Positions 9,177 to 64,000 of a stretch of DNA of 64,000 nucleotides are shown here, one piece after another. The notes below the pieces were generated by a model. That model searched no databases, was not told the DNA's origin, and saw only the letters and a list, made by a program, of their open reading frames with translations. Numbering within the stretch: the first letter of the stretch is position 1; every line of letters starts with the position of its first letter. Source of the stretch: Amoebophrya sp. A120 (lineage: Eukaryota; Protista; Dinoflagellata); assembly GCA_905178155.1 (NCBI GenBank), contig CAJINV010000005.1, positions 2,234,054 to 2,298,053 on the forward strand. The letters run 5' to 3'. Position numbers and translations under genes: made by a program.

Positions 9177-9314
9177 TTGTTGGCGCGACCCTCCCAAGTC
9201 ATATGTAGTGAGGTCACGAACTGCGTTCTATCCTAGCGTAGTACTCTGCGACTCGTGCCGCCCGGCGCCGTCATCTCCTGTGTCAGTCTCCCTGCCAGCG
9301 CCCCGCATCAAAAG

Positions 9315-11153: not shown

Positions 11154-11300
11154 GTACCCAGGACCCAAAGAACGCACATAACAAAGATCCGCATGCCCCG
11201 GGCCGGCGTGGCAGAAATAACTAGTCCGCAGAAACCAGATCTGCGCACCCTACCGGGGAGCGGGCGAGCCACCCGATTGGGGCCGAGTGGATTCAAGCTA

Positions 11301-11827: not shown

Positions 11828-11844
11828 GCATGCATGTGCATGCC

Positions 11845-13868
11845 CCTAGGTGCTAGGTTCCCGACCTAGGTGCAGCACCTAGGTGCTAGGTGTCAGACCT
11901 AGGCGCGGCACCTAGGTGTCAGACCTAGGTGCAGCACCTAGGTGCTAGGTGTCAGAGCTAGGTGCAGCACCTAGGTGCTAGGTGTCAGACCTAGGTGCAG
12001 CACCTAGGTAACAGACCTAGATGCAGCACCTAGGTGCTAGGTGTCAGACCTAGGTGCAGCACCTAGGTTCCCGAACTAGGTGCAGCACCTAGGTGCTAGG
12101 TGTCAGACCTAGGTGCAGCACCTAGGTGCTAGGTGTCAGACCTAGGTGCAGCACCTAGGTGCTAGGTGTCAGACCTAGGTGCAACACCTAGGTGTCAGAC
12201 CTAGGTGCAGCACCTAGGTGCTAGGTGTCAGACCTAGGTGCAGCACCTAGGTGCTAGGTGTCAGACCTAGGTGCAACACCTAGGTGTCAGACCTAGGTGC
12301 AGCACCTAGGTGCTAGGTGTCAGACCTAGGTGCAGCACCTAGGTGCCAGACCTAGGTGCAGCACCTAGGTGCTAGGTGTCAGACCTAGGTGCAGCACCTA
12401 GGTGCTAGGTGTCAGACCTAGGTGCAACACCTAGGTGTCAGACCTAGGTGCAGCACCTAGGTGCTAGGTGTCAGACCTAGGTGCAGCACCTAGGTGCTAG
12501 GTGTCAGACCTAGGTGCAACACCTAGGTGTCAGACCTAGGTGCAGCACCTAGGTGCTAGGTGTCAGACCTAGGTGCAGCACCTAGGTGCTAGGTGTCAGA
12601 CCTAGGTGCAACACCTAGGTGTCAGACCTAGGTGCAGCACCTAGGTGCTAGGTGTCAGACCTAGGTGCAGCACCTAGGTGCTAGGTGTCAGACCTAGGTG
12701 CAACACCTAGGTGCCAGACCTAGGTGCAGCACCTAGGTGCTAGGTGTCAGACCTAGGTGCAGCACCTAGGTGCTAGGTGTCAGACCTAGGTGCAACACCT
12801 AGGTGTCAGACCTAGGTGCAGCACCTAGGTGCTAGGTGTCAGACCTAGGTGCAGCACCTAGGTGCTAGGTGTCAGACCTAGGTGCAACACCTAGGTGTCA
12901 GACCTAGGTGCAGCACCTAGGTGCTAGGTGTCAGACCTAGGTGCAGCTCCTAGGTGTCAGACCTAGGTGCAGCACCTAGGTGCTAGGTGTCAGACCTAGG
13001 TGCAACACCTAGGTGTCAGACCTAGGTGCAGCACCTAGGTGCTAGGTGTCAGACCTAGGTGCAGCACCTAGGTGCTAGGTGTCAGACCTAGGTGCAACAC
13101 CTAGGTGTCAGACCTAGGTGCAGCACCTAGGTGCTAGGTGTCAGACCTAGGTGCAACACCTAGGTGTCAGACCTAGGTGCAACTCCTAGGTGTCAGACCT
13201 AGGTGCAGCACCTAGGTGCTAGGTGTCAGACCTAGGTGCAACACCTAGGTGTCAGACCTAGGTGCAGCACCTAGGTGCTAGGTGTCAGACCTAGGTGCAG
13301 CACCTAGGTTCCCGACCTAGGTGCAGCACCTAGGTGCTAGGTGTCAGACCTAGGTGCAGCACCTAGGTGTCAGACCTAGGTGCAGCACCTAGGTGCTAGG
13401 TGTCAGACCTAGGTGCAACACCTAGGTGTCAGACCTAGGTGCAGCACCTAGGTGCTAGGTGTCAGACCTAGGTGCAGCACCTAGGTGTCAGACCTAGGTG
13501 CAGCACCTAGGTGCTAGGTGTCAGACCTAGGTGCAACACCTAGCTGTCAGACCTAGGTGCAGCACCTAGGTGCTAGGTGTCAGACCTAGGTGCAGCACCT
13601 AGGTGCTAGGTGTCAGACCTAGATGCAGCACCTAGGTGTCAGGAGACCTAGGTGCAGCACCTAGGTGCTAGGTGTCAGACCTAGGTGCAACACCTAGGTG
13701 TCAGACCTAGGTGCAGCACCTAGGTTCTAGGTACAGCACCTAGGTGCTAGGTGTCAGACCTAGGTGCAGCATCTAGTTTAGCGACCTAGGTGCGGCACCT
13801 ACCCACGTGCCAGAGCTACCTACGTCCGGCACCTAGATGCCAGAGCCAGGCGCGGCACCCAGGTGCAG
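11845..13868. repeat. Palindromic CCTAGG minisatellite with 33-bp and 26-bp units and a ~92-bp higher-order repeat
   Basis: Unit L = cctaggtgcagca-cctaggtg-ctaggtgtcaga (33 bp); unit S = cctaggtgcaaca-cctaggtgtcaga (26 bp). Mostly arranged L-L-S and decaying at both edges. No ORFs on either strand. Confidence 0.97.
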
Positions 13869-14310: not shown

Positions 14311-14759
14311 TGTGTGAAATCAACATAAGATGATGGATGAGAAATGGTTTTCGAAGTTTGCGTCCCAATGAAAAAGAGTCAGGAAGTAGGCTTCAGCATC
14401 AATGATTCTGGCAACACTCCATGCCGCTGGAGCTCTGTTCCAGTCATTTCCATACGGGCGATTCTTTGGTGTTCATAATTATCACGAGATACTCATTAGA
14501 ATTAGACACAAGAAGTGTTTAGGGTCTTGTTGATCAAGGTGACGAGGTACTGCGGAGTTGCTTAGACTTGTTATGTATGAGTCAAAAGTTCAATATTTAG
14601 TTTATCAGACGAGTGCGTAAGCGTAATTTTGTACGCTGCGGACTCTTCGCCATATGATGTCCATGACATAGAGACTTCATGCTACTGTGAGCGAGAAACT
14701 AGCTTTTCAAGTGAGTCATGTCATCAGGTTCTTGAATTTTTGAACAACATCTTCCAAAG

Positions 14760-17700
14760 ATGGCCCACTCCGAGTCTGTAATCCTACGCTGGGTGCGCGA
14801 TTCCATCGCGTTTGGTCTGGATCACAGTTCTTTAAAAGTGCAGGAGCGAATTCGAGAAACTCTTGGCGCGCCGCAACTGCCGAAAGAATTATCCCTGCAA
14901 GACCTGCGTGATGGGAAAGTGCTGGTGGCGCTGGTATAGCAAGTAGGTTTTTCTGCATCTGCCTGCATGTCATACGTATCACAGGCCTCTCGAAATAAAT
15001 TGAAATACGCAACTACTTGCTTTTGCAAAAAACGATAAAAATGATTCACAGGTCCAAGGCATTGACATTCGTCTCTGCCGCAGAAGTAACAACATTCCGC
15101 TCGGCCGCCTTGCTCAGTTTCAGACCAGCTGTCGCGAGTTGGGCTTGACCGACGCCCAGATTTTCGCGGTGCCGGACCTTGTTCCCGACGTGAAAAATCC
15201 GAAATCGGTTTTGAAGACCCTGCAGTCCCTGTCGGAGTGCCTGGACCACAAGTGGCGGGGGCCCAGGATAGGTAGAGAATAGTTAGGGTTTAGGTGGAAC
15301 TGTTTTTGCAGGAGAAACCGCATCACATACTCCATTTGTTTTGCATGAGCTGCACCGTATCTAATAACATCGATTTTCCACCTTCAGATTCCTTCCGCCA
15401 GTCTTTCCAGAAGAAGAAATCTTGGTCTGAGTCGTCTTCTTCTGAAGACGAAAAGGAAATCCGACGTTCTTCGATCCACTTCCGCGGCCGGCAGACGAAC
15501 CGACGGCAGAAGCAGCGCGTGGTGGAATCCAGTTCGTCCGAAGAGGATTTTTTGGACAAAAATGAAAAATCCGAGTTTCAATCCCTCTCCCCGAAAGGAG
15601 GAACTACCAACGGCAGGCTCACCTCGGTGGATGAGAGCGGGAAAAGAAACTACATCAGTGCGCCGGGCAACACTGCAGCTTCTAGGGGAACTACTTCTGC
15701 AGCTGCCCAGCTTTCGTCACCTCTCGACGATCTGCTTTCCAACAGCACCGACAAGAAGCAACTGGACTACCTCGGCACGGAAGCAACTGCAGCGACTTTT
15801 GAAGGGGGGCCAGGCGATCGCTCGAACCTCGCTGCATTCGAAAACAGTAACCAGCACCCCTCTTCGGTTCGCCTTTCCGCGTCGAGCGACCTGCGGTCCT
15901 CCTCGTCCGCGAGCGATCTCAGCTCGTCCGCCGCGTCCGGCGGTGCGTCGATGCAGAACTTCCAGTCGCCGAACCGGGCCGGAGGGAAGAAGCACCACGC
16001 GAAGCGGCACGTGAACAGCTTGCGGAACGTGTTTCCGACCGCGAGTGGTGACGGGGGAAAAGCGCAGGATAACGAGTTTGAGGACGCGGAGGAGGGGGTG
16101 GATGTCCGGGGCATGCTGCAGACGTGGGAGGAAAAACATCAAGGTGCTGGACTGAACGGCGGCGTTGCGCAATCAGGAGAAACTACTTCCACTGGGATTG
16201 TCATGCGAATTTTCGACGAGCACGAGGACGGGGGAATAAAACAGGTCGAAATGGACGCCGACGAAGGCGTAAGAAGTGCAGATTCAGCACTAGAGGAAGA
16301 CCCAGCGGACGCCGTCAAGAGAAGCAAGGACTCCGCGGCGAAGTCCAGTAAGCAAAGCGCAGGAGGAAGTGCGATTTTGCTGGAAGGAACAAATGTTGGG
16401 TCGACCGGCGGGGCCGGAGAACATGTCAATTCCCACGCAAGCAGCGCGGTTTCCTCCTCGGTTCTGTCCTCAAATTTGCGGGACGAAATCCGGCAAGATC
16501 TGGAGCGGGCCCGGGTGGTGGAGGACAGTTTCGAGGAAACACTGGAGAGCCCGAACGACGGAACTGCAGGTGGTCTTGCGCATGCAGCTCCCGCTCCGAC
16601 CGGAAGTCTCGTGGTGGACGAAGAGGAAGAGCGTGGAGGTCCTGCTTCTTCCAGTGTAGTTGCTTCACCGGTGAAGAGAGAAAGCAAAAACCCCTTCGCT
16701 TTCACGCCGCCAGCGAGGGACGAAAATAAAGCAAACGAGAAGGACGATACCGCGAAAAGTGTTGTTCTTGGAAAAAGCAGTAGACTCGATACCACACCAA
16801 CGACCGCGTCTGTGGCGAACATAGTGGAGCAAGTTTTGCAAAACGCGGCGAGTATTAGTGTGAAGGAAACCACACAAACATCATCTTCAGCTGCACCATC
16901 TGGAACACGTGATGGAAAAGTAGACCTTCGCGCAACTACGGCAGGCACAGAACCATCTTCAAGCCAAGTTTTTGTGGAAAAGAAGGAAGTGCAACAAATA
17001 GTCGAGTTGCTTCTCGACAAGGCGGCGAGCCACGTCACGGTTGAGAATGTCGTGGATAACTTAGTGGATAAAACGTTTGAGCAAGTGGCGAAGGAAATTT
17101 TAGAGGAGAAAAGCGTGAAGAATTTGGTAGAAGAGATGATAGAAGCCGCTGCGGACCGAGTTGCCGCGTCGCCTTCGAGAAGGAGTGGCGGAGAAAAGAA
17201 AGCGACCCAAGAAGGAAGTAATGACGATCTTCTGCGAGGCAACAACAATTCCACCGAGACTGCTTCTCGAGGAACTACCGAACCAGCTTCGTCTGGCACA
17301 CCCAGCTCGAAGACGGTGAAGGAAATCATCACGAACATGGTCGATGACGCAGCGAAACAGTGCGCGATGGAAATAGTGAGGGGCAGTTCGATACAGGCGA
17401 AAGGCAGCGGTGCACCAGAAGTTGCAACAAGCAATCAGACCGCGGACGACCACCAGGATGAAAGCGGAATAAAGAAGAAAGAGAGCAGCGGATCCGGCAG
17501 AAGTGCCAGTCCGTCTCGGCAGCGGGTTTCAAAAGATTTCTCTTGTGACCTCTCCATTCCAAACGAGAGGTCGCCCCAGTCGCCGCAAAGTCCAGTTGTG
17601 TTTTCGCCAGGAGAAAAAAATGCAGCAGCGGTGGTAGAATTGAGTGGGAAGAAAGCGGCGGTTGAAGAAGCGGCTCCGGTTCCGGCGGCTCCTGCCGGCG

Positions 17701-37803: not shown

Positions 37804-39105
37804 AGTTCCGACTCAATATGACCGAGTATGTAGGTATGCTCTGTGTCTTCAGTTGCAAAACCAAATATGATGATAGTGAGAGATATGAATAAATCAACTT
37901 CACATACTTACATTGTTTAACAACTCCCCTAGGTACTTACGAAGTAAGTGAAAAAATCACCAATGCCTTATGGTTGAGCTTCAAAGCAACCACTGCGAAA
38001 CTGGCTGTTTTACGGACAGCACGAAGAATATCAGAATTGCCAGACAGCCACCAGCTAAGCAAATCGACTGATTCACGTAGATAGAGAGGATGTTTTCATC
38101 GTAGATTTTTCCTAGCGCTCGTGTATCTTTTGCTCCAATAAAAAACGAATCAGACGCAAAGCCATTGATAGAACACCTAGCATCGAAAGTCGTAGCGCAG
38201 CAAGGCATTCCCATGCTTACCCTCTATGAAACATATGCGTTTATAATAGCTGCAGCATTTGCCAGGCTGTGAACAGGTATTTAATTATAGCACCGTAAGT
38301 AGAAGCACGGGTAGCTACGCGTCTGCGCAGCAAGCGTTTCAATTAGAGGCGAAGGGTATGGCAAAACGATTTCGCAGCAACACGTTGAAAGAATACTTCA
38401 ATGAACATAAACAAATGACTTTACATCTTCTGTAGCAGCTCCTCAGCAAAATTTCTAACTCGTAAAGAATTTTTTATCGTTCTTCACAATTAAGTGTTAC
38501 CCTTCTTTGACGTTTTTAATCCCGCCCCAGGTAAAATGAATGTATAGCTAAGCAATGCAAATTTTGTAAAATCCAAACCTTATCGTTATCCACCTGTATT
38601 TGATTTGCGAAGTCAGAATTGTACAGTATTCGTCGTTTTCAATCTAATGGAACTGGAAGGGCTTTTTAGCTATGCGCTGACGCAGTGCTACACATTGCCA
38701 CTGGTGGTCGAGAGGAAGTACCAAAAGAAATGCTGTTTGTTCTACCCCACTGCGTTTTGAGTTTGCTGATTTGCAGACCTGATCGCAGATGAGTGGACAT
38801 GCAACGCAAGCTAGTGCTTTTGTTTTGGTCTCCGTCTTGCACCGGTAACAAGTACTCACACCCACACGTCACCATGATCCCATACGCATTTCCGAGCGAT
38901 CTGCTTTTGCAAGTTTCTTTTTGCCTAGGCTCCTGCCCAGGTAGGTTCGCACCAGGTCGCATTTGCTTAACGCCATGGCCTTCAAACAGTTGTTTTCGTC
39001 TCGAACACCGGTCGCGCTGTCATGCGGCCGGGGGTGCTTTACAGAAAGAATGGGACGATCCGCGCGCGTCCGGGTGGGTCGTGCTCTTTTCTTCCTGTGG
39101 CAGAC

Positions 39106-42100
39106 ATGGTCGTGTGGAAGAGTGTACGGCGGTCAAGCCAGGTCACCAGCAGCTTCTGGACTGCTGGAAGCACGAAGGACTGTGATTCAACACGTGCGCC
39201 GTCCTGTGTGCGTGCATTCACTACCTTCTATCGGCCGATCCAGGAGAAGTTGCTTGGGCGCGGGACGGCCTGTGTCAAAGAGTTGCGGGGACGACATGAG
39301 AAGCAGTTTTCTTCGATCTCCGCCGCACGGATCAAAAATGCCATCCAGCAACATCACCAGGAGCAAGCCCCCGCTCGAAACCCGGCTACTGTGGGCACTG
39401 CACGTGGCACGCAAGTTTTCCCTCCGCTCCAACAAAACCTCGACACCGACGCCAAATTGATCCAGAGTTGCTACCGCCTTGTCACGGAACGGGTAGATCG
39501 CCCGATCGCGGTGAATCTCATCCCGCAACTCGACTGCAGCAACTTACTCGGCTTCCCATCGCCGAGTCTGGCGAGTTTGATGAAGTTGAAAACGAAGAAG
39601 TCACTCACAAAAAACCCCCGAACAACCAGCCCTACTGTGCCCGCCGGCCGCCAGTCGCTCCTCCGTGAGGTCTTACTCCAGAAGGAAGCCGCGATCTTAC
39701 ACTCCGCTACCTACCAGCAGACCGGAGCGCATAGTGTCGTTTTCCTGACTCGCGTCGGCGATTTTTACGAGGCTTGGGGTTTTGACGCGGTGCTCTGTGT
39801 GCAGTTTTGCGGGCTGAATCCTATGGGCGGCAAGGCGAAGTGCGGCTGTCCGAAGAGTTTGGTGCAGCAGACCTGCGACGCGCTCACCACGCAGGGTTTT
39901 TCCGTCGCGATCTACGAGGAAGTGGCCGGGGACGTGGTGAAACGAAAAAACGCACAACTGAAACAGCGGTTTCTGGCACAGATCGTCACCGCGGCGCAGC
40001 CAACTTATCGGTATGGAATGTCTATTTGCTCGGCGGGTACGGGGGCAAGTCTGGCGTCTAGCACCACTTCGACTGCTACCGATAAGGTTGACACCACCCA
40101 TTCCCCGATCCTCGGCGCGGGTCTCGAGTTCATGACGAAATCCAGTCTGCAGCCCCGTCCTGTCGTCGCCCTCCGTCGCTCCGTCGATCGCGGGTTCGAC
40201 CTCTGCGAGATTGATTTGGAAAGCCAAACCTTCCGGCGCCTCCGCGGACTGACGCGGGAAGCGGTCCGCACGCAGCTGGAGCGGCTCCCGGGCGTGGCGC
40301 AGTTGGTCTGCTTCCACTGCAGCCCGGCGCAACTGCCCTTTCTGCGGGAGTACACTACGACTGCGCCGGCTTTGGTGTACCGGGTTGGGATGCTGGGAGG
40401 CGGGGCTTTCCCGGGGACGACCGGAGCAGGTGGACAAGATGTTGGAGCTAGACCCTCTGGTGCAGGAAATGGTGTTTTTGTGGCAAATTTCGTCCACCAA
40501 GCATTGCGGATGCTGCAGGTTAACGACAGTGAAATTGCAAATTTTCGTGAGGTCAGCTGCTCATCATCAGCCTCATCCGATGGGCATCAAACTCTTCAAA
40601 ACCACGAAGACCTGCCAGTTCTCCCCCCACTCGGTGTGGGCGTCGCGAGGTTCCTCGGCCTGACAAGCACGAAAATCGGAGGAGGCGGTCCTCTTCGGGG
40701 CAGTTTTGCAAACGGTGAAACAACGTCCAGCCCTTCCTCCCCTAACCTGATCAGCTGCTTACTGCCCCAAAACAGCCCGGCCTACGCCCACCGCTGGCTG
40801 CAGGAGTGGCTGTTGTCACCGCCCGTCTCCAAGCTTCGAACCTGTTTCGCCGAAGCCGTGAAATACTTTCGGGACACGAACCAGCCGCTGCCTGGGCCGG
40901 AGTCCCTCCGGCCGGTGAAGTTTGATTTCGCCAGCTGCCACAACTTTCACCAGGCCGGCAGCGAGTTCCAGGTGCTGAAAAAGTCGCTGAAAGCGTTTTT
41001 GGACGTGGAGAAACGGTTCCGAGGGAAAATCGTGGAAACCTCTATTTTCCCCATTGCCGCCTACCACTCCGGCGTGCCTGCGAGTGTGGACGTTGTCCGG
41101 ATTGCGGAAAAATTAGTGCGGAGGATCGAGGAGACGGTCGTCGACGAGACGGCGGCGCGTTTTGGAGACGTGAACGCAACCGGGACAAACGCTTTTGATA
41201 GTGCTGTAGGAGATGAGGAGATAGACTCAATATATGTTGCCACCGACACTCACGCGACAACGAGGCAACAGCCTGATTTTCTCAAAGAGCTCCTCGACTT
41301 CGCCGCGCACAAAGAGGCCGCACTGAACCAGAGCAACATCCTTGTGTGCCGCGAAGGCCTACGTGACGCATTCGACGCTTTCCAGGGGTACGCGGATTTA
41401 CAGGTCGGAAAAGGGTTTCGGATTGTTTTCAGAAAAGCGTTGCCGCCAAAACGGGCGGCGGAGGGGGGATTTTCGGGAGGTGGCGATGGTACAGCCGCTG
41501 GCTTTTCTCCTTCACCCGCGCACGACTCCGCGATTGTTTTTCAGGACGCACTCTACCTCGCACCGGTGACGAAAAAAGTTCAAGTTGCCAAAAGTCCTCG
41601 TGGTGATTCGGCTGCAATTATTGACGAGGCCGAGAACCATCAACATCCATCAGACCCTTCGTCATTCTCTTCCCCACATGAACCAACCAAGTTTTCGAAA
41701 AAATCGTCCACCTCGACTCTCGGCCCCCGCTACCGCCACGGTGGCTACCGGCCGCTTGATTTGGTCCGACTGGAGCGAGATTACCTGAGGGAACTCGAAA
41801 ATTGCGAACACGCCGCAAATGCCAAGATTCGCAAGCTAGCACAGGAAATCCAATCCGAGACCGCGGCTGTCGCATTTATTTCCCACACTTTGGTAGTTGT
41901 TTCTGTCGCATCACTCCATGCGGAAGAGAGTTTACGACGCGGCTGGACCTTTGTGGAAGGCGGATTTGAAGAAGAGAGTAGTAACACTCTGACTAGCAGG
42001 ATAGATGATAAGCACGACAAGAATTCCGCCAGCACTGCCTCGCTTGCTGAAGAGACTGAAAAACCTCCCGCAGCTATCCACCTCCGCCATCTCTACCCGT

Positions 42101-43578
42101 ATTGGCTTCAGTCCCCCACAGACACTGCAAATCCGCAAAACGCGAACACCATTTCGCTCCAAACTGCGAACTCCGTTGTCGTCCTCACTGCGCCGAACGC
42201 AAGTGGAAAATCCTGTCTGCTCCGTTCCTTCCTCGCCGTCGTTTTGCTCCACCACTGCGGTTTGTTCGCTCCGGTCGCAGCAGAATCCTTTCTGACAACC
42301 CGAATCTCTTCCCTCCAAGCCTTCCACCCGACGGGCGACTGTCCGGTGGAGAATCGGTCAGCGTTTGAAAACGAAATCGCGCAAATGTCCGAGATCCTAC
42401 AGGAGGTTAACGACTACCACTCTAGGACGAAGAAACCATCTCTCATCATGATCGACGAGTTTGGACGGGGGACCAGCGCCCGGGAAGCGACGGCCTTGGC
42501 GGCCGCGATTTTGGAGTATTTGAAACCGCCAAACGGGTTCACGTGCACGATTTTCGCCACGCACTTGCACGAAATTTACCCATTGTTGGAGACAGGAATA
42601 ACTGCAACGAGTTGCATGGCGAGAACGAGTGATGAAGAAGAAAGTGAAGAAGCTGGTGCTGCAAAAATCGACGCTGTTGGAACAACCAAAGGCGGTGGCG
42701 GATCTGGTGAAAGAGCAACTACAACTGAAGCGAAGAATGAGCAAGAAAGCGACTACCTCTTCTGGCGCATGGCCGCGAACTACAAGCTAGAGTCGGGAAA
42801 GTGCACGAACAGCGAGGCCCTGCACTGCGCGAAACGCGGGGGATTGCCGGCGAAGATTTTGGAACGGGCGGAAGCGCTGTTGCAAATGGAACAGGAGCAC
42901 CAAATGGAAGGAGCTGCTAGCGGTGCGATTTTTCGTCCTGCTATTCAAGCTGGAGCAGTTGTGACTGCGGCAGACCCGGTGTCAGACACAACCGAGTTAG
43001 AAGACGCTGCACCAAAGAACTTCCCGATGGCTCAGTCAGAATCTCACGTAAAACACGACTGCCCTCATTCGCAAGACATTAACGCATTCGAAGAAAACCA
43101 GCCTGACCCGGAAACAGCGCAGTTGGACGTGATTAAACTCCTGATGCAGCAGTTGGCAAGCACACAGCAGAAGCAACATCAGACGTCGGGACTGTTTCCT
43201 CCTGATTCAGATTCAACCTGCAATTCTTCAAAAATCGACATCCTCGAGTTGTCCGAAGCCCACTCCCGTCCGCCAGCCTCCGTGAACGCTAGACCCTGCG
43301 TGTACTGCTTCAAACTGCAAGAATCCGGCAGATTCTACGTCGGCGAGACGGCGTCGCTGCGCCAGCGGCTGATGTACCACAAGCGAACGAAAGGCAGCTG
43401 GTCGACTTGTCTGTGCGTTGTTGTGAACGACAAATCCGCGGCGCAATTTGTCGAGACGGCGTTGATCCAGGAGCTGTGTCGTCGCGAATTCCCGATGCAC
43501 AGCGCCAATGACGGGAACCGGAGGGTGGCGAGGGGAGGGGGTCGTCCGGGTGGAGGATTTGGTGGCGGCGGGGGTTGA
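39106..43578 (+). CDS. MSH1: Plant-type organellar MutS homolog 1 (MutS domains + C-terminal GIY-YIG endonuclease)
   Basis: RVGDFYEAWGFDAVLCVQFCGLNPMGG...GCP...QQTCDALTTQGFSVAIYEEV (MSH1-type domain I); LYPYW; Walker A TAPNASGKS; DCPVENRSAFENE; LIMIDEFGRGT; IFATHLH; GIY-YIG CVYCF...FYVGETASLRQRL.YH...KSAAQFVETALIQEL. ATG 39106 follows a pyrimidine-AG site and opens an R/S-rich presequence-like stretch. Confidence 0.92.
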   Translation: MVVWKSVRRSSQVTSSFWTAGSTKDCDSTRAPSCVRAFTTFYRPIQEKLLGRGTACVKELRGRHEKQFSSISAARIKNAIQQHHQEQAPARNPATVGTARGTQVFPPLQQNLDTDAKLIQSCYRLVTERVDRPIAVNLIPQLDCSNLLGFPSPSLASLMKLKTKKSLTKNPRTTSPTVPAGRQSLLREVLLQKEAAILHSATYQQTGAHSVVFLTRVGDFYEAWGFDAVLCVQFCGLNPMGGKAKCGCPKSLVQQTCDALTTQGFSVAIYEEVAGDVVKRKNAQLKQRFLAQIVTAAQPTYRYGMSICSAGTGASLASSTTSTATDKVDTTHSPILGAGLEFMTKSSLQPRPVVALRRSVDRGFDLCEIDLESQTFRRLRGLTREAVRTQLERLPGVAQLVCFHCSPAQLPFLREYTTTAPALVYRVGMLGGGAFPGTTGAGGQDVGARPSGAGNGVFVANFVHQALRMLQVNDSEIANFREVSCSSSASSDGHQTLQNHEDLPVLPPLGVGVARFLGLTSTKIGGGGPLRGSFANGETTSSPSSPNLISCLLPQNSPAYAHRWLQEWLLSPPVSKLRTCFAEAVKYFRDTNQPLPGPESLRPVKFDFASCHNFHQAGSEFQVLKKSLKAFLDVEKRFRGKIVETSIFPIAAYHSGVPASVDVVRIAEKLVRRIEETVVDETAARFGDVNATGTNAFDSAVGDEEIDSIYVATDTHATTRQQPDFLKELLDFAAHKEAALNQSNILVCREGLRDAFDAFQGYADLQVGKGFRIVFRKALPPKRAAEGGFSGGGDGTAAGFSPSPAHDSAIVFQDALYLAPVTKKVQVAKSPRGDSAAIIDEAENHQHPSDPSSFSSPHEPTKFSKKSSTSTLGPRYRHGGYRPLDLVRLERDYLRELENCEHAANAKIRKLAQEIQSETAAVAFISHTLVVVSVASLHAEESLRRGWTFVEGGFEEESSNTLTSRIDDKHDKNSASTASLAEETEKPPAAIHLRHLYPYWLQSPTDTANPQNANTISLQTANSVVVLTAPNASGKSCLLRSFLAVVLLHHCGLFAPVAAESFLTTRISSLQAFHPTGDCPVENRSAFENEIAQMSEILQEVNDYHSRTKKPSLIMIDEFGRGTSAREATALAAAILEYLKPPNGFTCTIFATHLHEIYPLLETGITATSCMARTSDEEESEEAGAAKIDAVGTTKGGGGSGERATTTEAKNEQESDYLFWRMAANYKLESGKCTNSEALHCAKRGGLPAKILERAEALLQMEQEHQMEGAASGAIFRPAIQAGAVVTAADPVSDTTELEDAAPKNFPMAQSESHVKHDCPHSQDINAFEENQPDPETAQLDVIKLLMQQLASTQQKQHQTSGLFPPDSDSTCNSSKIDILELSEAHSRPPASVNARPCVYCFKLQESGRFYVGETASLRQRLMYHKRTKGSWSTCLCVVVNDKSAAQFVETALIQELCRREFPMHSANDGNRRVARGGGRPGGGFGGGGG

Positions 43579-54560: not shown

Positions 54561-54993
54561 GTGTGTATAGAGGTTGTTTTTCTGAACATCATTCGAAAAC
54601 AGCAACAAGAAAAGATGAACTCGCCTGGTGATAGGTGCATGTGTTCCTTTCATCAAGGCAGCACTGTAGTTGCTCATCCATCTGTTTGTCGTGCCGGTTA
54701 GAGTGGAACCCGCAACTGGATGAACTGTCCACAGAGGGCACTATGGCGGCATTTGTTACATCTAGCGCAGTACTGTCGCGCTCAACCCTATGTTATGTAT
54801 TTGTTCACCGTCATGGCCACGATGTTCGTTGTATTTAGAAGACTTTTTTCACAAGAAATCGAACAACATTTTTCGGTTCCTTTTCACTTCAAGTTCAACT
54901 AGTTCACTTTCGTTTTTTCGGCAGCGATGAATTTGAATGCAGCTTCATGAGAATCAATTACTGCAACTAGAAATCCAATGACGCAGGAAGATA

Positions 54994-56346
54994 ATGTCCA
55001 ACGTACAACTACTCCCAAGAACCCTCTCCTTCCTCCGCCTCCCCGGACGACCGGCGCAGCACCTAGTCGGCCGCTTTCGGTCCTTCCTGGCTTTGCGGAA
55101 GTTGGTGCAAGCGGAGGAAGGCAACCCAGAGTTGCAACGGTTTTTCAGCCAAACGTTTCTTGGCAGGAAGAAGCTGCAGGACAAATCCAAGCTGGTAGGA
55201 GGTTTACTGCCACTGTCGCTGCCATCGAGACTAAAATTGTTTGGGCACAACAGGGAAGAGGGCCCAGAGAGATGTTTGGCAAAGGCACGAGCAGCGGTTG
55301 ATGCTGTCCTCGTTGGCCCCCAGCACGCAAAATGGCAGTGCTCCACGTTGCACTTTTCGTGGCTGCAAATCGAGGCGCGAGCAACATCGCCTGCAGTCAA
55401 CATGTCTTCAACTACCATGTCTAACAACTACAGGGACTGCAATGGCGTTTACTCGCCGACGAAACACGAGACCATCGCGCACGTCAGGAACGTTCTGAGA
55501 AAAAATTTCTCAAACATCCTCGAAGACTACAGGCAAATCACAACCTGGTACCAGGACCAAAACATAACCGGCACCTCCGTGGTGAAATCGGGTAAGTGGA
55601 CGAAGTTCCCGGTTTTATCGTATGCGAAATTCCACGAAGAGGCGAACTGGACCTTCACGCAACAATTGTTGCAAAGCGAGGAGTTAGCCCCTTATCTCGC
55701 GAAAGGCCTGGGAAGTTGCTACTTCAGCCGCCTGCAGGGGAAAACGCACATCCGGGAGCACTACGGACCCACGAACGGAAGGGTGCGCGTGCATTTGGGA
55801 CTCGAAATTCCGGGCGAGAACGGCGGGTTGGGGACGAGGGGATCTGCAACTGCTGGCGTGGGAGATCATCGTGCTACATCTGTTTATGGACAAGATTCTA
55901 CTGTTGCAGCGGCAGAAGTGGAAGAAGCTGCACGAGTAGATGTGGAACATCAGCAACAAAACCAGCATTGCTTCCTCCGTGTGGGCGATAGCTGTTACCC
56001 CTGGATCCAAGGCGATATCTTGGCCTTCGACGACAGCTTCTATCACGGCGTTTACCTCGACAGCGGAGATGGAAATGCGACAAATTCCTCTTCTGAGAGG
56101 GAGAACGTGAGGGGTACTAGTGCAAGGATAAAAACCTCTTTCGGGAATAAATCGAAATCACCAGCATCCGAAAGAACAGACGAAAATCTAGTGCGTGGCG
56201 TTTTGGTCTTAGACATTTACCACCCTGATCTAACGTTCGCCGAGCGGCGATTTTTGGAACAAATGGAGCAAATAAACGCCAAGTTTTTACCAAAAGCGCA
56301 GAACTGGAGCCAGATTTCAAATGCTCGCGGCAGTTTTGCACATTGA
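54994..56346 (+). CDS. Aspartyl/asparaginyl beta-hydroxylase family 2OG-Fe(II) oxygenase
   Basis: YFSRLQGKTHIREHYGPTNGRVRVHLGLEIP, WIQGDILAFDDSFYHGV, RGVLVLDIYHPDL. Confidence 0.92.
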   Translation: MSNVQLLPRTLSFLRLPGRPAQHLVGRFRSFLALRKLVQAEEGNPELQRFFSQTFLGRKKLQDKSKLVGGLLPLSLPSRLKLFGHNREEGPERCLAKARAAVDAVLVGPQHAKWQCSTLHFSWLQIEARATSPAVNMSSTTMSNNYRDCNGVYSPTKHETIAHVRNVLRKNFSNILEDYRQITTWYQDQNITGTSVVKSGKWTKFPVLSYAKFHEEANWTFTQQLLQSEELAPYLAKGLGSCYFSRLQGKTHIREHYGPTNGRVRVHLGLEIPGENGGLGTRGSATAGVGDHRATSVYGQDSTVAAAEVEEAARVDVEHQQQNQHCFLRVGDSCYPWIQGDILAFDDSFYHGVYLDSGDGNATNSSSERENVRGTSARIKTSFGNKSKSPASERTDENLVRGVLVLDIYHPDLTFAERRFLEQMEQINAKFLPKAQNWSQISNARGSFAH

Positions 56347-56879
56347 AAAACTACGAACAAGTTTTTACACCACCAATAGTTATCGCGGTGTCGATAGTGT
56401 TGATTTGTTCTCTAGAACGTAATCTTCGTGTCAAGGGTAAAAGTGATTGAGAGACTCGAGAGAAAAGATAAGCAAATCGGAAGTCGTTTATTTGACCACA
56501 AATCGGATTTCGTTTATTCGTGCCTTCATCTTTTCTGAGTGACAAGCTTCAAATCGTTTCTTAACTCTTTGCTTGTTTTGTCGCATCACAAATTGCTTTT
56601 GAGCACTTGTTTTGTTTTCTTCCAAAAACAATCATGAATGGAATCTTTCCCAAACAATTCGTTTGCTCCGCCGCGGGCTCAAGGTCCTAAATGTGTATCG
56701 TAAACTGTTAACGAACCCAACCAAGAAATAAATAAATACTTCTGAAAGAACGACCAATGCTTTCTCCGCATTGAGACCTTCGCTGTTCATCCGACGCTAC
56801 CATCGTAATTCCATTCCGACGATCAACACGAAGATCGGGAAGATCTGAGTTTTGGAGAGTGTCTACCCGCTTTTCGCAG

Positions 56880-56890
56880 TGGTAGCGGAG
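56880..56890 (+). promoter_or_regulatory. Candidate primer-binding site (tRNA-iMet type)
   Basis: TGGTAGCGGAG one base after ...CGCA. It is complementary to a tRNA 3' end CUCCGCUACCA and resembles iMet PBSs (TGGTAGC...). Confidence 0.6.
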
Positions 56891-57029
56891 ATCAGGTTGT
56901 ATCTCCAACCTATCTCGCTCCCGGCCTACGACGACGGTACGGGACCAGTGCGGAACCTACGAGAGAAGATCCTCCCCCTTTTTGAATGAGCCCAACGAAT
57001 AACTCCTGAAGACACTCGGAGGAACAACG

Positions 57030-60000
57030 ATGAACGGACATACCAGGCAGTCTAGCAATGCCAGCATGGGTATGCCGATCGGCGCGGACGCTGCGTTCGT
57101 GCTGCAGGAGCAGCAGCAGGGAATGCTGAGGAACGGCAGCAGTCCGAACAGTGAAGTCCCGTACAACGGCGGGATGAATAATTCGTCTAGAAACAACATG
57201 CAGATGCAACGTGTGCCAGCGCCCAATCAGATGCAGGTGCAGAATTGGGTGCAGCAGCAACCGCGTGAAGTCCAGTTGCAACAGCAGCAGGCGCAGTGGT
57301 CTAATTCCAATGGCGTGAACCAGATCCCGCCGGGAATCGGTCCACCCAGCTATTGGGACAATGTGATTGGCGCAACTGTTGAAGGGCGGACGCAGATGCT
57401 AGGTCAGGCCGCATTCTCGCTGCAGAACACACAGCAGCAGAATTTCAACCAGTTGTCGAATGCCGCGATGCAGCTAAATCAACAACAGCATCAGCTCGGG
57501 CAAGCTGCTGTGGAAATCAACCAGCAGAATCAACAACTTGGACAGGCCGCGATGCAGTTGAACGCACAGCGTCAGCAGCTGCAGAGTCAGAATATGATGT
57601 TGAACCAGCAACAGGACCAGATGCTGGCGCAGTCCGGTTTTAATCAGCAGCAGTTGCAGGCTGACGGACAACAGATCCTGAACCGGTTCGGAAATGTCGA
57701 TCAGAGTCTGACCACGGTGCACTCCTCGCTCCAGACGCAAGCCCGTGACTTGCAGAATCTCGCCCGAATTGCAAATGACCTCGAAGAGGAGTCCAAAAGC
57801 AAGAAGGCAGAAAAGGAGCAGTACGAAGCGCGCATGAAAGAAATGGAGGAAGAAATCGCCCGTCTCCGTGATTCTCCCCGAAAGAAGAAGACTGTGGATC
57901 GGCTGAACGAAGTGGAACAGCAGATCAGCAGTGGGGAAGAGGGCGGTACTGTCATCTGGGATGACGTCATCGTCGGGAGACCGATCTTGGACTTGAACGA
58001 GGACGGAGACGACACGCTGTCGAGCATGCAGGAATCTCCGGATGGCAAAGCCAACGAGTCGAGGAAGAAGTCAGTCAAGTTCGAGGAAAACGGTCACAAG
58101 AAGAGTTTCTCTCCTAACACCAAAATTCCCGCACGCAACCAGGAGACTGCGGATCGAGAACAGCGTCTGCGTGATTTCATGAAGACGCACCGTGAAAACT
58201 ACCAGCGTGAAGAAGCTGAAACCCGTGCGAAATTCCTCCAGCAGCAACAGCAGTGGAACTCTGGTGGAAGCATGAACGGATCCAGCAATGGAAACTTCAA
58301 CAGTGGTCACGGTGGCTACAACCCGTATGCAGGACATGGTCACCAGGGGCACGGAGTGAATTCCGGTGGTGTCCGGCCTGGTTTTGCCAACTACGGGTCT
58401 GGTGGTTTGGGTCCGAGCAATGGTTTCTTTGGCGGAAATCAGCAGTTTGGCCCGCACGGAAACTACCACGGAAATTTCGGTACGAACCCTACGGGAACCA
58501 TGAATGGTGGTCACGGTTTTGATCGACGCCTCAGCAGCGCCGGTGGAAACTACGGCGGCGGTGGCTATCAGGTGCAGGCACCGAAAATGCCGGGAATCGC
58601 TGAGTCCCTTCTCCCGATGGGAACGCGACGTGACGGCATCGTGCGATCCGAGAAGTTTTTCTTCACCAAGATCACGTTCGAATCCACCTACAAGGAGCAG
58701 AGCGGTGATCGACTCGGAGTTCCGAACGAGATGCGTTTGATGATCAAAGACCGTATGCCGGATCTCCCTGCACCCACGGTGAAGGAGAATTGCGCCCTGT
58801 GCGGGTGGTTGGAGTCGCTGGAAGAATACCTCATGGGTTTGATTCGCGACGACAACAAGCGCAGTGACGGAAGAGTTTTCTTTCCTGCTCGTGCCGAGCA
58901 CTCCATCATCGAGGAAATGCTCTTCGAAATCGACGCGGACCGTGCGAAAGTGTCGAAGTTTTACCACTGCATGGCCAAGTCAATGAAGGAGAAAGTCCGC
59001 CGGTTCTATTTTAAGAGGAACTACCGCGAGACGTACACCTTCGCCAATCTCGCCGAAGCGCTCTATGTGAGCTACGCGTCGGGATTCGTCCGGAACCGCG
59101 TTGAGATGCAGAAGTGCAAGTCCTTCTATTTCAAGAAAGGTGATGATCCGAAACAGGGTCTATTGCGATACTGCGACGTGGCACAGGATGCGGGAATCAA
59201 TCCCTTCCCAGATAACCATCTGGAGCGACACCGGGTGTGGGAAGATTTTGTCTCCAAATGCCAGAACAAGGAGAACCCCCGCAACAACAATTTTCCGGTC
59301 GAGCTGACGACGCAGTTCATGATGGCGCCGGGGTTTGCCACCATGGAGGTGCCCTACATCGAGGAATTCATCAATTTCCTCAACATGCGCGAAAGCGTCA
59401 GCGTGTTGATGCCAGGACAGGATGAAGAAGCTGCTCGCGACATGGGTTTGACCAAAGAACAAGCTTTCCCGGTCTGCGAAGAAGAAGTGGGCAGTTTCAT
59501 CTCAACCTCGGTGGCAGGGACTTTTGGTCCAGGCAGTGAACTAGTCCTGGCGGCGAAGACCAATCCGCGCAGCAACTACCCGTACGACCCGAAGAAGCCG
59601 TTTGGAAAATGGCCAGTGGGGAACGGGGGCAAAAACCAGAACAACCAGAAGTACGCCGGTGAGTGGAAAAACGGTGGTGGTTCTGGACGGATTGTGTGTC
59701 GCAAGTGTCTCTCGAAAGAGCACAAGACGGACGCCTGTCCGTACGAGGTGAAGGTCTGCAGCTTGTGTTTCAGCCCCGAGCACCTGCGTGACAAGTGTCC
59801 GAAGATGCAGAAGCAGCTGGCCGCTGGTGCTGTGATCGAGCCGGTGACAGCTCTGTTGGGGACCGAGAGGTTTGCCAAGGCCAACATGCCGGAAAAAGTC
59901 GCCATGTTGGTGGAAGCTATCGGCCAGGGCGACATTGAAGCGGTTCTGTTCTCGGTGGTGAAGAAGGACGACACTGAGCGTGCGTTTGCGCTAAGTATGG

Positions 60001-60128
60001 CTGAGGACACGTCCAAGAAGGAGACCTGCTACTACAACGAAGAAATCTTCGGGCGCAACGACGAAAGCCAGGAGTTGGTCTTTCCGGTGAGTGAGGGTTT
60101 CCAGGCGGGCCACAGCGGACGCCAGTAA
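57030..60128 (+). CDS. Gag-like protein with two CCHC zinc knuckles
   Basis: CRKCLSKEHKTDAC and CSLCFSPEHLRDKC (CX2CX4HX4C), preceded by Q-rich, coiled-coil and G/N-rich segments. Confidence 0.85.
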   Translation: MNGHTRQSSNASMGMPIGADAAFVLQEQQQGMLRNGSSPNSEVPYNGGMNNSSRNNMQMQRVPAPNQMQVQNWVQQQPREVQLQQQQAQWSNSNGVNQIPPGIGPPSYWDNVIGATVEGRTQMLGQAAFSLQNTQQQNFNQLSNAAMQLNQQQHQLGQAAVEINQQNQQLGQAAMQLNAQRQQLQSQNMMLNQQQDQMLAQSGFNQQQLQADGQQILNRFGNVDQSLTTVHSSLQTQARDLQNLARIANDLEEESKSKKAEKEQYEARMKEMEEEIARLRDSPRKKKTVDRLNEVEQQISSGEEGGTVIWDDVIVGRPILDLNEDGDDTLSSMQESPDGKANESRKKSVKFEENGHKKSFSPNTKIPARNQETADREQRLRDFMKTHRENYQREEAETRAKFLQQQQQWNSGGSMNGSSNGNFNSGHGGYNPYAGHGHQGHGVNSGGVRPGFANYGSGGLGPSNGFFGGNQQFGPHGNYHGNFGTNPTGTMNGGHGFDRRLSSAGGNYGGGGYQVQAPKMPGIAESLLPMGTRRDGIVRSEKFFFTKITFESTYKEQSGDRLGVPNEMRLMIKDRMPDLPAPTVKENCALCGWLESLEEYLMGLIRDDNKRSDGRVFFPARAEHSIIEEMLFEIDADRAKVSKFYHCMAKSMKEKVRRFYFKRNYRETYTFANLAEALYVSYASGFVRNRVEMQKCKSFYFKKGDDPKQGLLRYCDVAQDAGINPFPDNHLERHRVWEDFVSKCQNKENPRNNNFPVELTTQFMMAPGFATMEVPYIEEFINFLNMRESVSVLMPGQDEEAARDMGLTKEQAFPVCEEEVGSFISTSVAGTFGPGSELVLAAKTNPRSNYPYDPKKPFGKWPVGNGGKNQNNQKYAGEWKNGGGSGRIVCRKCLSKEHKTDACPYEVKVCSLCFSPEHLRDKCPKMQKQLAAGAVIEPVTALLGTERFAKANMPEKVAMLVEAIGQGDIEAVLFSVVKKDDTERAFALSMAEDTSKKETCYYNEEIFGRNDESQELVFPVSEGFQAGHSGRQ
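60095..60101 (+). promoter_or_regulatory. -1 ribosomal frameshift slippery heptamer G GGT TTC
   Basis: X XXY YYZ in correct gag phase. The -1 frame opens immediately after TGA 60092-60094, and gag stops at 60126-60128. Confidence 0.75.
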
Positions 60129-63100
60129 ACTCAACGCAGACTTCTATCGAAAATGTGAAAATTTTGAAAGAAGAAGAAAGTGAGGAGAAAAATTCTTCGA
60201 ACAGTCATGATGTTGCCGAACTTTCTCAATCAAAAGTTGACCTCAGTGAATTTGTCAACTATGCACTACAACGAGCTCTTTTTGCAAGTGAAGATCGGGG
60301 GTACGACGACAATTCCTTCTCTGTCCAGAACAGTGCCGACCCCATTCTCGAGAAGATTCTGCACGAAAAGAACGCGACTCTAATCAGTAAAGAAGTTGAA
60401 GAATTCTCTCCCAGCAGGTGCGCGACCATTTTGGCCGACCTGCAAGGTGAAAAGCAGGCACTTTCCACATTTCCTTCTTCTCCTGCGGAGACCGCTAGCG
60501 GCGCGACCATTTTGGCAACCGAGCGGCACTTCTGCCAGGATGAGAACAAAGCACTTTTTACAATCGAAAGAACCGAAATACAACTTGACGACGGGTACAA
60601 CATTTGTTTGTACCTCACTGCGAGAGCCGGAGAATTCTGTGTGGCCGAGGCTATCAAGAACGGTCTCTCCCTTCCCGAAGACGACGTGGCAGGTGAGCGA
60701 GCCTGCGGGATCGGAGGAGCCCACAGGAAGATACTCCGGAAAATCGCAGTACCCTACAAGATCTACAGTGAAGATGGAGAGCCCTATGCTCTCGGCCTCG
60801 AAAAGGCAACCATCACGGAGGAGGGTCCCAACTTGTACGGCATGACACTGAGAAAAAAGTGTTACTTCTCTGTGCTGGTCAAGCCGGGAACGCCAGATCG
60901 TGTGGAAGGGCACGACGGAACCAAGTTGATCGACTTCCGGGGACAAAATGCAATCTACACGCGCATCTTCGACCTGACCAAGGACGACTATGCAACTCTG
61001 CGTCGGATGCAAGAAGAAGTTCCTCGGGACCAGTGGCTGCGGCCGATCTTCTACAACAAAATTCGCCCCAAGGGAAGCTTGCCGCTGGAGTTTGACTACG
61101 ACCCGATGACAATCCGGCAGTACCAGGACCGGATCACCAAAAGACAGATGGCACAACGTCGCGGGCGCGTCAGCGAGCAGGTGAATTTTGTAAACGAGGT
61201 GGACACCGTGCTTTTCCTTGAGCAGGAAAAGGAAGACCTGATGCGTGTACAGGAGCAGCAGTTCGCGGCAAATACCGACGAAGAAGGAACCTCGACCAAA
61301 GCGCAAAACACGGAAAAGGCAGTAGTAGTAAACCTGCATGACTACGGCTGCAACTGGAGTGATTGGAAAAGCATCCAGCGATGGCTTGACCAGGATCCCC
61401 GACACGTGTACATTGGCCGAGGAGAGAACTGCAAGTGGGGAAACCCATACCGCATTGGGGTGAACGGTGACACTCGTGCAGAGGTATGTCGCAAATACAG
61501 AGACCACTGTGTTGCTCGGGGACTCGACCGTGATGCCCGAGAGGAGCTACCGGGAAAAATCCTCGGATGCTTCTGTTCGCCAGCAGCATGCCACGGCGAC
61601 AGTCTTTTGGAATTTCTGCAGTGCGAAGAGGTTGGAGCTGCAGGCGAAGGAGGAAGTCGTAGTTGGCGTAATCCTCCACCAGCACAAAATCTGGAGCCAG
61701 CGCCGGTTGTTCAGGATGTTCAAGACGGTCTGTTCCGTGTCACCACCGAACAGCTGCGACGAAACGGCGACCGAGGTGGCTACGCTGTTTATCGCGTCGT
61801 GGATTTTGGTCTTACCAAAACCCCGCTCACCCCAGACTGGCTCACGGAGAGAGTCAGGCTTAGGAGGGTGGTGGACGTCCAACGGCAGGAGCGCGCGGTG
61901 CGGGACATCGTGAACGATTGGTCTCGTGCAGATCTGATCAACTCGCAGATGATGATTCCCGGTGGAAAACAAAAATATGTCTCCATCGATTATTATTATC
62001 ATCTCGCCGACGACGCTGGTATTCTCCAAGGAAAAGCAAGAGAAAAGGCGACCCGACTCCGCGGCAAATTGTCGGGACAGTCACACGAGCTTGCAGTTTC
62101 CTTCGATGGGAGCATCGACTATGGAGAAACTGGACCTGGTAACCAGACCGGAAATGTCCGCCAGATCAAGGCCGAAGACGAAGAGAGCGGTTCCCTGCGA
62201 CTAAAGCAGCCTCGACATCTCGATGGTGTCCGCATCTTTACCGCTCGTCATATCGACGATTTACCCGATCCTGTTCGTGCGATGGGATATCGGGTGCGAG
62301 TGGACGAAGAGGCGGAGCTCGAACCAGTGCAGCTTCAGTTTCCGGATCTCGCGCGCGACATGACAGCCAAGAAAATCCGAACCGGATTCAGCGAAGAAGT
62401 CCTTACAGCCATCGACGACAAGTACATCGCGAAATTGATCGGGATGTTACGAGAACACCCGAAGCGGCGAACTCTCCTTCTGGATGCCACCGGTGTAGGT
62501 CTATCTGTTGCGGTCGGCGAACGAATCCGTCGAGCAGGACGATCCAACGTGGTGTTTCACGGGTCTGTAGCGAAAGAACTCTTCGTACACGAGTACACGC
62601 TACTGAATGATGGAACTGCCATGCGGTACAGCGACGAGGAACGACTACGGGTCGACGCTGTGATTTCTTGTTTCCGTTTTGTCAAAAAGGAACATCGCGC
62701 GAAGCTCCGTGCTGTTCAGGAAATCCTCTTCCTGACAGGGAAAGTAGCGAGTGAAAAAGAGTGCTATGACCTCTGCAAGAAACGCCTCTCTACCATCAAC
62801 CTCCAAGAGTTGGAAGAACTTGTTGCTGTTGTTCGGCGGGACACGATGGCGGGCCTGAAATTCGGGCTCAGCAAGCGAAGCAAGTCGCTCACCGGATGGG
62901 ACCCTTGCACAGCCGCCATGCGAGGTGGGGTAACGCTTCTCGACACCTGTTTCCTCACGGAAAACGGAGTGGTGTATGTGGTGATCTGCTGCATGTCTCT
63001 GCCGGATAAGCGCTCCGCGTGTTTCGTCTGCGGGACTAAGTTCAAACTGTCCGCGCTTGTCGCCAAGTCCAAGCTCACCACCGACGAAGCTAATTCCATC

Positions 63101-64000
63101 GAGGAAGGAATTCTGATGAACATGTACACAGAATTCGGCGAGAAACTGTTCCAGGGACACGCCTCTCCTACCAAAGTCGACGTTGTTCGCGCCCTGTGCT
63201 GCTTTCTCGACAAAAAGGTGCTGCGACGCAAGTGCTATGCAGACAGTGGCGTGGAAAGCATCGCGCTCGAGGACTGGCTTCCACTGCACAACAGCGGTAG
63301 AGAAATCTATCTTCTTCCTACCGGCACACCGGTCTATCCGATGGAAAGGCGAATCTTATCGCTCAAGACGATTGTGAAGCGTCTGCGCCGTCTCCCAAAT
63401 TTCAACCGGATGCCGCTCTTCATTCTCTTCAATGAAGCCTGCGAAGCTTTGGCTAACATCTCTTCGACAGGATCAAATGGAAGAAGTTCCAACGAGATGT
63501 GGTGGGGCGTAGAAGAATCCAACAACACGATGACTACGCACCCGGACGACAAGGCAGTCTGCAACTTCGCCGGCGGAAGTACGGAGTACACCATCCAGCA
63601 TCTGAGTGAGTGTCGTGCGAGAGTTTACGGCGAACTGATGACGATGCAGGGAGAAACTTCGTACATCGACGCGGTCGCCAAGATCATGGCAAACTGCAGA
63701 GCAAGATTACGTGCTGCAAACAAAGAAGGTCTCAGCATTGGGGAAACTGTAAATGTTCACAGCCCGCACATGCACGGCGTGGACACGGTCAATCCTGTTT
63801 TTGGCCGTCAGGTTAATAAAGGAGCCTCGGGCTTTGACTACACGATCAAAACGAAGAGAGGGCTTCAGGTTGTAAAAGAGAACATGATCAGTCCGCAACA
63901 CAATCTTGATGCGTTTTGTGATGTTCCAACTGACCTGCAACCATTGACGGAGTTGGATTTTAAGCGAGGTGGAAAACTCTACGAGGCACAACGGAGGAGC
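60095..64000 (+). CDS. Pol polyprotein (partial): retropepsin-like protease, DUF4326, unknown region, DDE integrase
   Basis: Hand translation gives 1302 codons without a stop. Protease IQLDDGYN (D at 60587), CGIGG, NLYGM. DUF4326 VYIGR...KWGNPY...LGCFCSPAACHGDSL. Integrase LLDTCF (62942), YADSGVE (63242), MERRILSLK (E at 63344), then an SH3-like LSIGETVNV segment. Confidence 0.85.

Follow-up and report, generated by a model that had tools for sequence, protein, structure and literature searches.

What does a DUF4326 domain do in the polyprotein of a eukaryotic retrotransposon? The domain is common in phages and giant viruses, its chemistry is only predicted, and a 2021 study describes, in its available text, DUF4326 fusions to replication and restriction components. 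Accessory enzymes of retroelements point to host defences worth finding. The question arose from a prediction made on 64,000 nucleotides of Amoebophrya sp. A120 (the whole stretch that was analysed, hereafter the window), which placed a DUF4326 domain between the protease and the integrase of a retrotransposon Pol.

A complete DUF4326 domain is encoded within Pol

The profile PF14216 matches residues 433-506 of the pol ORF over profile positions 8-82 of 82, with 61.5 bits vs a cut-off of 25, and is the only Pfam family found on the 1,302 codons of this frame. The DUF4326 peptide itself corresponds to residues 409-509, and a six-frame scan of the 64-kb window revealed one copy of the domain. 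The match (E 1.3e-16) falls within the predicted positions, 61319-61621 in the frame 60095-64000, and this frame does run open out of the window. At the local base composition, 1,302 open codons would occur by chance with a log10 P of about -26.

The signature that had been described as complete is indeed so, the YIGR, WGNP and GCxC-P-CHGD motifs all being intact. Of the 29 columns that at least 80% of 111 homologues share, the Pol domain keeps 28, all Cys and His residues included, a count biased upwards by the choice of homologues for their likeness to the query. Across the family alignment two Cys, the Pro and the His are invariant and a third Cys is nearly so. The GC3 of the insert says little (0.55 vs 0.57-0.65 in the rest of pol). 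A GCFC variant was considered as a mark of retroelement copies and dropped, the F being present in 39 of 168 domains.

The element is a young, single-copy Copia-order LTR retrotransposon

Features of the element are listed in Table 1. The 481-nt LTR contig had a depth of 72.9 vs 41.0 and 44 for its neighbours in X1, and of 51.7 vs 26.2 and 26.9 in X2, the internal region being at 41.0 and 26.2; it has two entries and two exits in the assembly and differs from the window at two positions. Doubled depth, paired entries and exits and the shared ATAG together indicate one element with two LTRs. At most 2 of 481 sites distinguish the two, the 3' LTR being deduced from the contig joins, and the insertion is therefore recent. 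Among contigs of the same sample the element is single copy at 80% likeness or more. Contigs of that sample that are 80-90% alike to the LTR start (window 56398-56462) point to at least one related element, whose internal region is too distant to align.

Table 1. Coordinates of the element and its coding features in the 64,000-nucleotide window
Feature	Position	Strand	Basis
Left target-site duplication	56394..56397	+	ATAG, 4 bp; the same four bases begin the contig leaving the other LTR copy (loose end at 56878)
5' LTR, 481 nt, TG...CA	56398..56878	+	481-nt contig with roughly doubled depth relative to the internal region
Primer-binding site	56880..56890	+	Begins TGG, one base after the LTR; from sequence
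gag ORF, two CCHC-type zinc knuckles at 59697-59798	57030..60128	+	ORF, zf-CCHC, likeness to P0002 gag
Candidate -1 slippery site G GGT TTC in gag/pol overlap	60095..60101	+	Sequence and frames
pol ORF, -1 frame relative to gag, open to the window's end	60095..64000	+	1,302 codons, no stop
Aspartic-protease-like region, motif at 60584-60598 by eye	60530..61120	+	Identity 74/192, 67/194, 77/191 to P0002, P0003, P0004
DUF4326 domain in variable linker 3' of protease	61319..61621	+	Pfam E 1.3e-16; model pLDDT 93.7; linker length vs relatives
Conserved domain X, predicted beta-rich	61733..62074	+	First part 51/92, 42/95, 49/94 identical to three relatives
Conserved domain Y	62219..62743	+	40% and 36% identity to two relatives
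Integrase core, D-D(33)-E	62936..63520	+	82/201 and 77/201 identity; motif and alignment

A HMMER search over 1.84 billion representatives gave 3,289 matches at E <= 0.001, and the best 150 of these 3,289 were listed. Among the matches listed, at least five proteins resemble Pol in regions other than DUF4326; these five are gene models of Amoebophrya, namely P0002 (strain AT5.2), P0003, P0004 and P0005 (A25) and P0008 (A120). Two of them, P0004 and P0005, have neighbouring gene numbers and may belong to a single element. Pol is 36-40% identical to P0002 and P0003. The 1,033-codon gag ORF, from an ATG at 57030 to 60128, aligns with the gag portion of P0002 at 30% identity over 507 aa (E 1e-51); its zf-CCHC matches to Pfam are weak, the best at E 0.0028. 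We take the primer-binding site to be of the initiator-Met tRNA type; no tRNA gene was found within the 64-kb window. As the arrangement of the two frames suggests, Gag-Pol would be produced by a -1 frameshift at G GGT TTC. A search for a stimulatory hairpin 3' of this site gave nothing better than shuffled sequences (z +0.69 to -1.18).

The order of domains in the window is protease, then integrase, with no RT between them; RT and RNase H come next in the colinear P0002 and P0003. An RVT_2 (Copia-type) RT matched 3' of the integrase in P0003 (E 2.2e-8) and P0005 (E 5.6e-10); P0002 gave no match, and the RT of the window copy lies beyond the window. Integrase precedes RT in the family alignment, which is not the layout of Ty3/Gypsy and BEL/Pao elements, where integrase comes after RT/RNase H. 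The protease motif reads D-D-G in the window and in P0003 and D-S/T-G in P0002 and P0004. The acidic triad of the integrase and its 33-residue spacing are kept in three of three sequences. Profile searches of pol (Pfam and others) returned no protease match and no rve integrase match, and no HHCC zinc finger of the integrase was seen by eye. The place foreseen for DUF4326, between protease and integrase, is correct as to order. However, the domain does not adjoin the integrase, from which it is separated by about 400 residues comprising domains X and Y.

No Pfam or PHROG match was found for domain X. Domain Y shows by eye a degenerate dual-specificity-phosphatase-like loop at 62474-62500, and profile searches of domain Y as a phosphatase gave no match. 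The corresponding strand-loop-helix reads C-S-x-G-x-G, without the Arg, in two relatives and is without the Cys in the window copy. Both domains (61733-62743) are present in all family members that cover them. A joint structure model of X and Y, built from four sequences, reached a pLDDT of 44.7, at which its fold searches are meaningless.

An element of about 11.6 kb, with room left for RT and RNase H, would result if the 8,750-nt contig directly joins the 1,996-nt one. The 30 letters before the other LTR copy, beyond the window, are C-rich and not polypurine; they are common to two contigs, which were pooled. The 8,750-nt contig, from two runs of one sample, agrees with 56849-64000 without a difference; that sample is possibly the window's own source, so the agreement is not independent. 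A chimeric assembly is rejected as far as one sample allows, a single 8,750-nt contig spanning gag, insert and integrase. From three raw RNA runs bearing this species label, 0 reads mapped to any part of the stretch, not even to the neighbouring host gene, so these runs are uninformative on expression. Low-depth contigs of X3, X7 and X8 reach the host gene, the LTR or gag, not pol, and are too shallow to show expression or silence. Altogether, the LTR, primer site, gag and Pol relatives identify a young, single-copy Copia-order LTR retrotransposon, and place DUF4326 within a retrotransposon Pol as originally proposed.

About 50 bases separate the element from the stop codon of an upstream aspartyl/asparaginyl beta-hydroxylase-like ORF (E 2e-21), which has the same orientation (window 54982-56397). 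At 38971-43578 (+) is an intronless MutS gene with MutS_I, MutS_V and a C-terminal GIY-YIG (E 2.8e-4), which we take to be the layout of organellar MSH1. Such a gene is of note because the mitochondrial genome of Amoebophrya is reported as possibly lost (PMC7789003, available text). All long ORFs with Pfam matches in the window are on the + strand, and the same text describes one-strand gene clusters for Amoebophrya. Further upstream, the window holds a GC-rich satellite with 13/20/33-nt units on a palindromic core (11761-13640), flanked by a two-copy repeat (11043-11152 and 14718-14824). A GC-rich block is present in three diverged copies at 7500-11830, with spacings of about 1.1 and 2.7 kb; repeat families D3-D5 and D7-D11 cover these and the flanking repeat.

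Related elements lack the domain or carry it elsewhere

Three relatives cover the linker between protease and domain X, and none of the three has DUF4326 there. This linker measures 212 aa in the window vs 138, 147 and 53 aa in these relatives. The absence from the same place in 3/3 relatives agrees with the earlier view of a captured accessory module that is not a standard part of Pol. That view also called for Pol-DUF4326 fusions to be sought in other genomes, and P0002 carries one, inside RNase H. There, a full DUF4326 (E 2.7e-22) follows the first aspartate motif of RNase H and precedes the strand that comes next, with colinear flanks on both sides. The RNase H loop, assigned by eye, is 207 aa in P0002 vs 90 aa in P0003, so that one of the two relatives covering RNase H has the domain within it. 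P0002 is a gene model joining gag and pol, with 63 RT residues missing, and its insert is known from the protein model alone. Since P0003 is a near-complete Pol yet without any DUF4326, the domain is dispensable.

The inserts of the window and P0002 are identical at 44 of 93 positions, and the Pol backbone at 35-55%. As insert identity is at about the level of the backbone, it is compatible both with a single old insert that was relocated and with two independent captures. Comparison of these sequences suggests that DUF4326 is likely a mobile, optional passenger of this Pol family. The case is strongest in its pattern of presence, absence and altered position among sister elements, with a small sample of two family carriers, one of which, P0002, comes from a gene model.

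Other searches returned no further relatives. Word-index protein searches found none and also missed the known P0002 and P0003; they are hence uninformative on absence. Scans of metagenome and viral contigs for the Pol family, with few patterns and low sensitivity, found no relative, nor did PDB sequence searches find one of DUF4326 or of Pol.

Host or other protist genes are possible donors

A phage or giant-virus origin, implied by the original prediction, did not find support: among the matches listed, three of the five best single-domain matches are standalone Amoebophrya genes (P0011, P0012 and P0014), and trees settle no donor. By local score these rank 1, 2 and 9 among 128, with P0002 third. 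They represent one standalone DUF4326 gene in three Amoebophrya strains and form one clade (support 100/99). This gene is a cellular eukaryotic member of DUF4326. The Pol domain is identical to it at 45-49 of 98 positions, while the three genes among themselves share 69-80 of about 103. A long N-terminal helix with a Trp before YIGR was seen in 13 of 129 domains, including the Pol copy, P0002, the standalone Amoebophrya proteins, and oomycete and diplonemid proteins. Phage matches amounted to 461 records, mostly partial, of which 13 cover 80%.

Trees were built from 141 rows by 93 columns (a quick tree, 11 domains without the anchor motif being skipped) and from 36 rows by 111 columns. AU tests gave p values of 0.39 for the window with P0002, 0.20 for the window with the host genes and 0.39 for the three polyprotein copies, so that no grouping was rejected or established. 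Judged from these comparisons, capture from a host gene or another protist gene appears at least as likely as a viral origin.

Such a source bears on the possibility that DUF4326 is a neutral passenger, template-switched from host or viral RNA and tolerated in floppy Pol linkers with no benefit to the element. We regard this as doubtful. It would fit the length variability of both insertion sites (53-212 aa and 90-207 aa), the absence of the domain from P0003 and from the P0004 linker, the single copy of the element and the standalone gene in the host lineage. However, identity to the host genes is too low for a recent copy, but no motif residue has been lost, and two or three elements have the domain intact, each at a site of its own.

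The model points weakly to a phosphatase-type fold

A structure model of DUF4326 from 112 sequences reached a pLDDT of 93.7 and a pTM of 0.85. In this model, strand 86-89 ends at Cys89 and is followed by a loop and then by helix 97-106, which is the layout of the PTP/rhodanese active site. The CX5R loop of classical PTP/DSP enzymes was not found, as no Arg stands six residues after either Cys, and it is absent from the family alignment too. A fold search against 48,161 solved chains placed the RapZ C-terminal domain first (Z 4.0, rmsd 4.5, 89 aligned), below the noise level of the tool. RapZ-C is an RNA-binding domain. Burroughs and Aravind are said to have defined, in 2023, a RapZ-C/DUF488/DUF4326 clade, with DNA-end processing predicted for some of its members. 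By title, 28 of the 50 rows of the fold search are PTP/dual-specificity phosphatases and seven are of tetrapyrrole-methylase type, none reaching Z >= 5. Foldseek on PDB gave no match at E <= 0.001. Among viral structure models, 28 match at E <= 0.001, most of them named DUF4326, the best being a Marseillevirus NADAR-plus-phosphatase protein (E 3e-8).

Iyer et al. 2022 assigned DUF4326 to the rhodanese-phosphatase superfamily and suggested that its role is to take terminal phosphates off the ribose of ADP-ribose derivatives. The model likewise points, weakly, to a rhodanese/PTP phosphatase fold. The nuclease activity that had been envisaged did not find support, as the published proposal and the modelled fold would indicate a phosphatase-type fold instead.

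A role other than that of a phosphatase could also be considered, be it metal binding through Cys and His, redox chemistry or sulfur transfer, or nucleic-acid or protein binding that aids integration targeting. The invariant C, C, P and H with the near-invariant third C would suit it, as would RapZ-C at the top of the fold search and the missing CX5R arginine. The site in P0002, inside RNase H, is however ill-suited to an integrase-targeting domain, and we consider a role of this kind improbable indeed.

A metagenomic polyprotein is a lead to a third carrier

The domain was also found near the C-terminus of P0143, a 4,402-aa metagenomic polyprotein (E 1.1e-21). In the corresponding locus L001 (306-17428), a gag-like ORF is followed by a 4,493-codon ORF in the -1 frame, with a slippery site G GGT TTT and a strong hairpin at this site (z -2.6). 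L001 encodes an Upf1-like helicase, an exonuclease-III-like domain and a weak DSP-like match (E 0.038), whose loop matches the loop of domain Y weakly (probability 14%). RT, RNase H and integrase motifs in Gypsy order were seen by eye; profile searches of L001/P0143 gave no RT, RNase H or integrase match, and no LTR pair was found in L001. A scan of viral contigs for P0143, with few patterns and low sensitivity, found no relative. We treat P0143, which looks retroelement-like by eye, as a lead and do not count it as a carrier.

A possible role at nucleic-acid ends

Our preferred reading, which we hold tentatively and at somewhat less than an even chance, is that the in-frame DUF4326 is an optional cysteine phosphoesterase, packed with Pol, predicted to clear phosphate or ADP-ribose-phosphate blocks from nucleic-acid ends. 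Gag-Pol made by the -1 frameshift would carry the domain into the particle, where it may be cut out of Pol or kept on the X-Y-integrase block. The putative nucleophile is the first Cys of GCxC-P-CHGD, at the strand end before loop and helix, as in PTP/rhodanese enzymes. The domain would then act on blocked ends of RNA, primer or cDNA, stripping off phosphate or ADP-ribose-phosphate, and the unblocked ends would allow reverse transcription or integration to proceed. The second copy in P0002 and the third in P0143 argue against a one-off accident. The primer site speaks against end-healing: its initial TGG is compatible with a tRNA ending in the usual CCA, and a requirement for repair of a cleaved primer is therefore not apparent.

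We prefer nucleic-acid ends to free signals, since Pol is scarce and confined to the particle and since the two insertion sites of this family both adjoin enzymes that work on ends (the integrase block and RNase H). The domain could instead be a sink for soluble ADP-ribose signals, in keeping with the ADP-ribose proposal for DUF4326 in the accessible text of Iyer et al. 2022, with SLOG fusions in P0018, P0020 and P0099 (29 scanned) and in Atlas rows, and with the NADAR fusion that is the best viral fold match. However, no SLOG, Macro or NADAR partner occurs in the 1,302 aa of Pol, in P0002 or in P0003, and a scarce, particle-bound Pol would presumably be a poor sink for a diffusible signal. 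A sink therefore seems clearly unlikely.

A wider proposal, which we put forward as unlikely, is that DUF4326 is a roving end-healing or ADP-ribose-countering module, recruited by unrelated alveolate-type protist retroelements at three polyprotein places, namely the protease-integrase linker, the interior of RNase H and the region close to the C-terminus, beside a decayed dual-specificity-phosphatase-like domain, and marking an undescribed phosphate/ADP-ribose-based restriction of retroelements. If this were true, it would offer a single-domain handle on DUF4326 chemistry. The sister elements provide a natural comparison with and without the domain, and a well-folded protein of 100 residues suits direct assay.

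Comparison with known systems

Our literature search, outside of which lay Repbase, GyDB and the supplements of Burroughs and Aravind 2023, found no report of DUF4326 in a retrotransposon, and the papers naming DUF4326 were virus-themed by title. DUF4326 within the Pol of an LTR retrotransposon is apparently new; the capture of accessory domains by Pol was already known (NADAR, methyltransferases). Gain, loss and relocation of DUF4326 extend the theme of NAD+/ADP-ribose conflict from viruses to protist LTR elements.

The element resembles Ty1/Copia (Pseudoviridae) in its LTRs, primer site and zinc-knuckle gag and, in its relatives, in an integrase placed before an RVT_2-type RT and RNase H. 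It differs in a 4-bp target duplication, which in Ty1/Copia is usually 5 bp, in a probable size of about 11.6 kb, in two extra domains before the integrase, in the D-D(33)-E spacing, in a pol in the -1 frame and in showing no HHCC finger by eye. With the DUF4326 proteins of phages and NCLDV (PMC9503650, PMC7824862 and bioRxiv 10.1101/2025.06.06.658234, available text) it shares the same domain with full motifs. Those proteins fuse to replication proteins and SLOG/Macro/NADAR, whereas here the carrier is a eukaryotic LTR retrotransposon, the N-terminal helix is longer and no SLOG/Macro/NADAR partner was seen.

The accessible portion of PMC5890265 describes cytosine methyltransferases captured by dinoflagellate and charophyte retrotransposons, and the present element likewise illustrates repeated capture of accessory enzymes into retrotransposon coding regions in the dinoflagellate lineage. 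The methyltransferases have known chemistry, hundreds of copies and shown activity, in contrast to the one copy and predicted chemistry of DUF4326 here. A case similar in kind is the YbiA-family NADAR that the available text of PMC12477816 reports near the Pol N-terminus in one Gypsy lineage of Ectocarpus and in the ORF1 of an oyster Tx1 LINE. In both cases an ADP-ribose-linked enzyme domain, mainly prokaryotic or viral, lies in N-terminal Pol, and processing of RNA intermediates is suggested there too. The domain and fold are different, and the NADAR element is of Gypsy order, in contrast to the Copia order found here. As described in that text, NADAR is fixed across one lineage, whereas DUF4326 shifts its place or is absent among close relatives.
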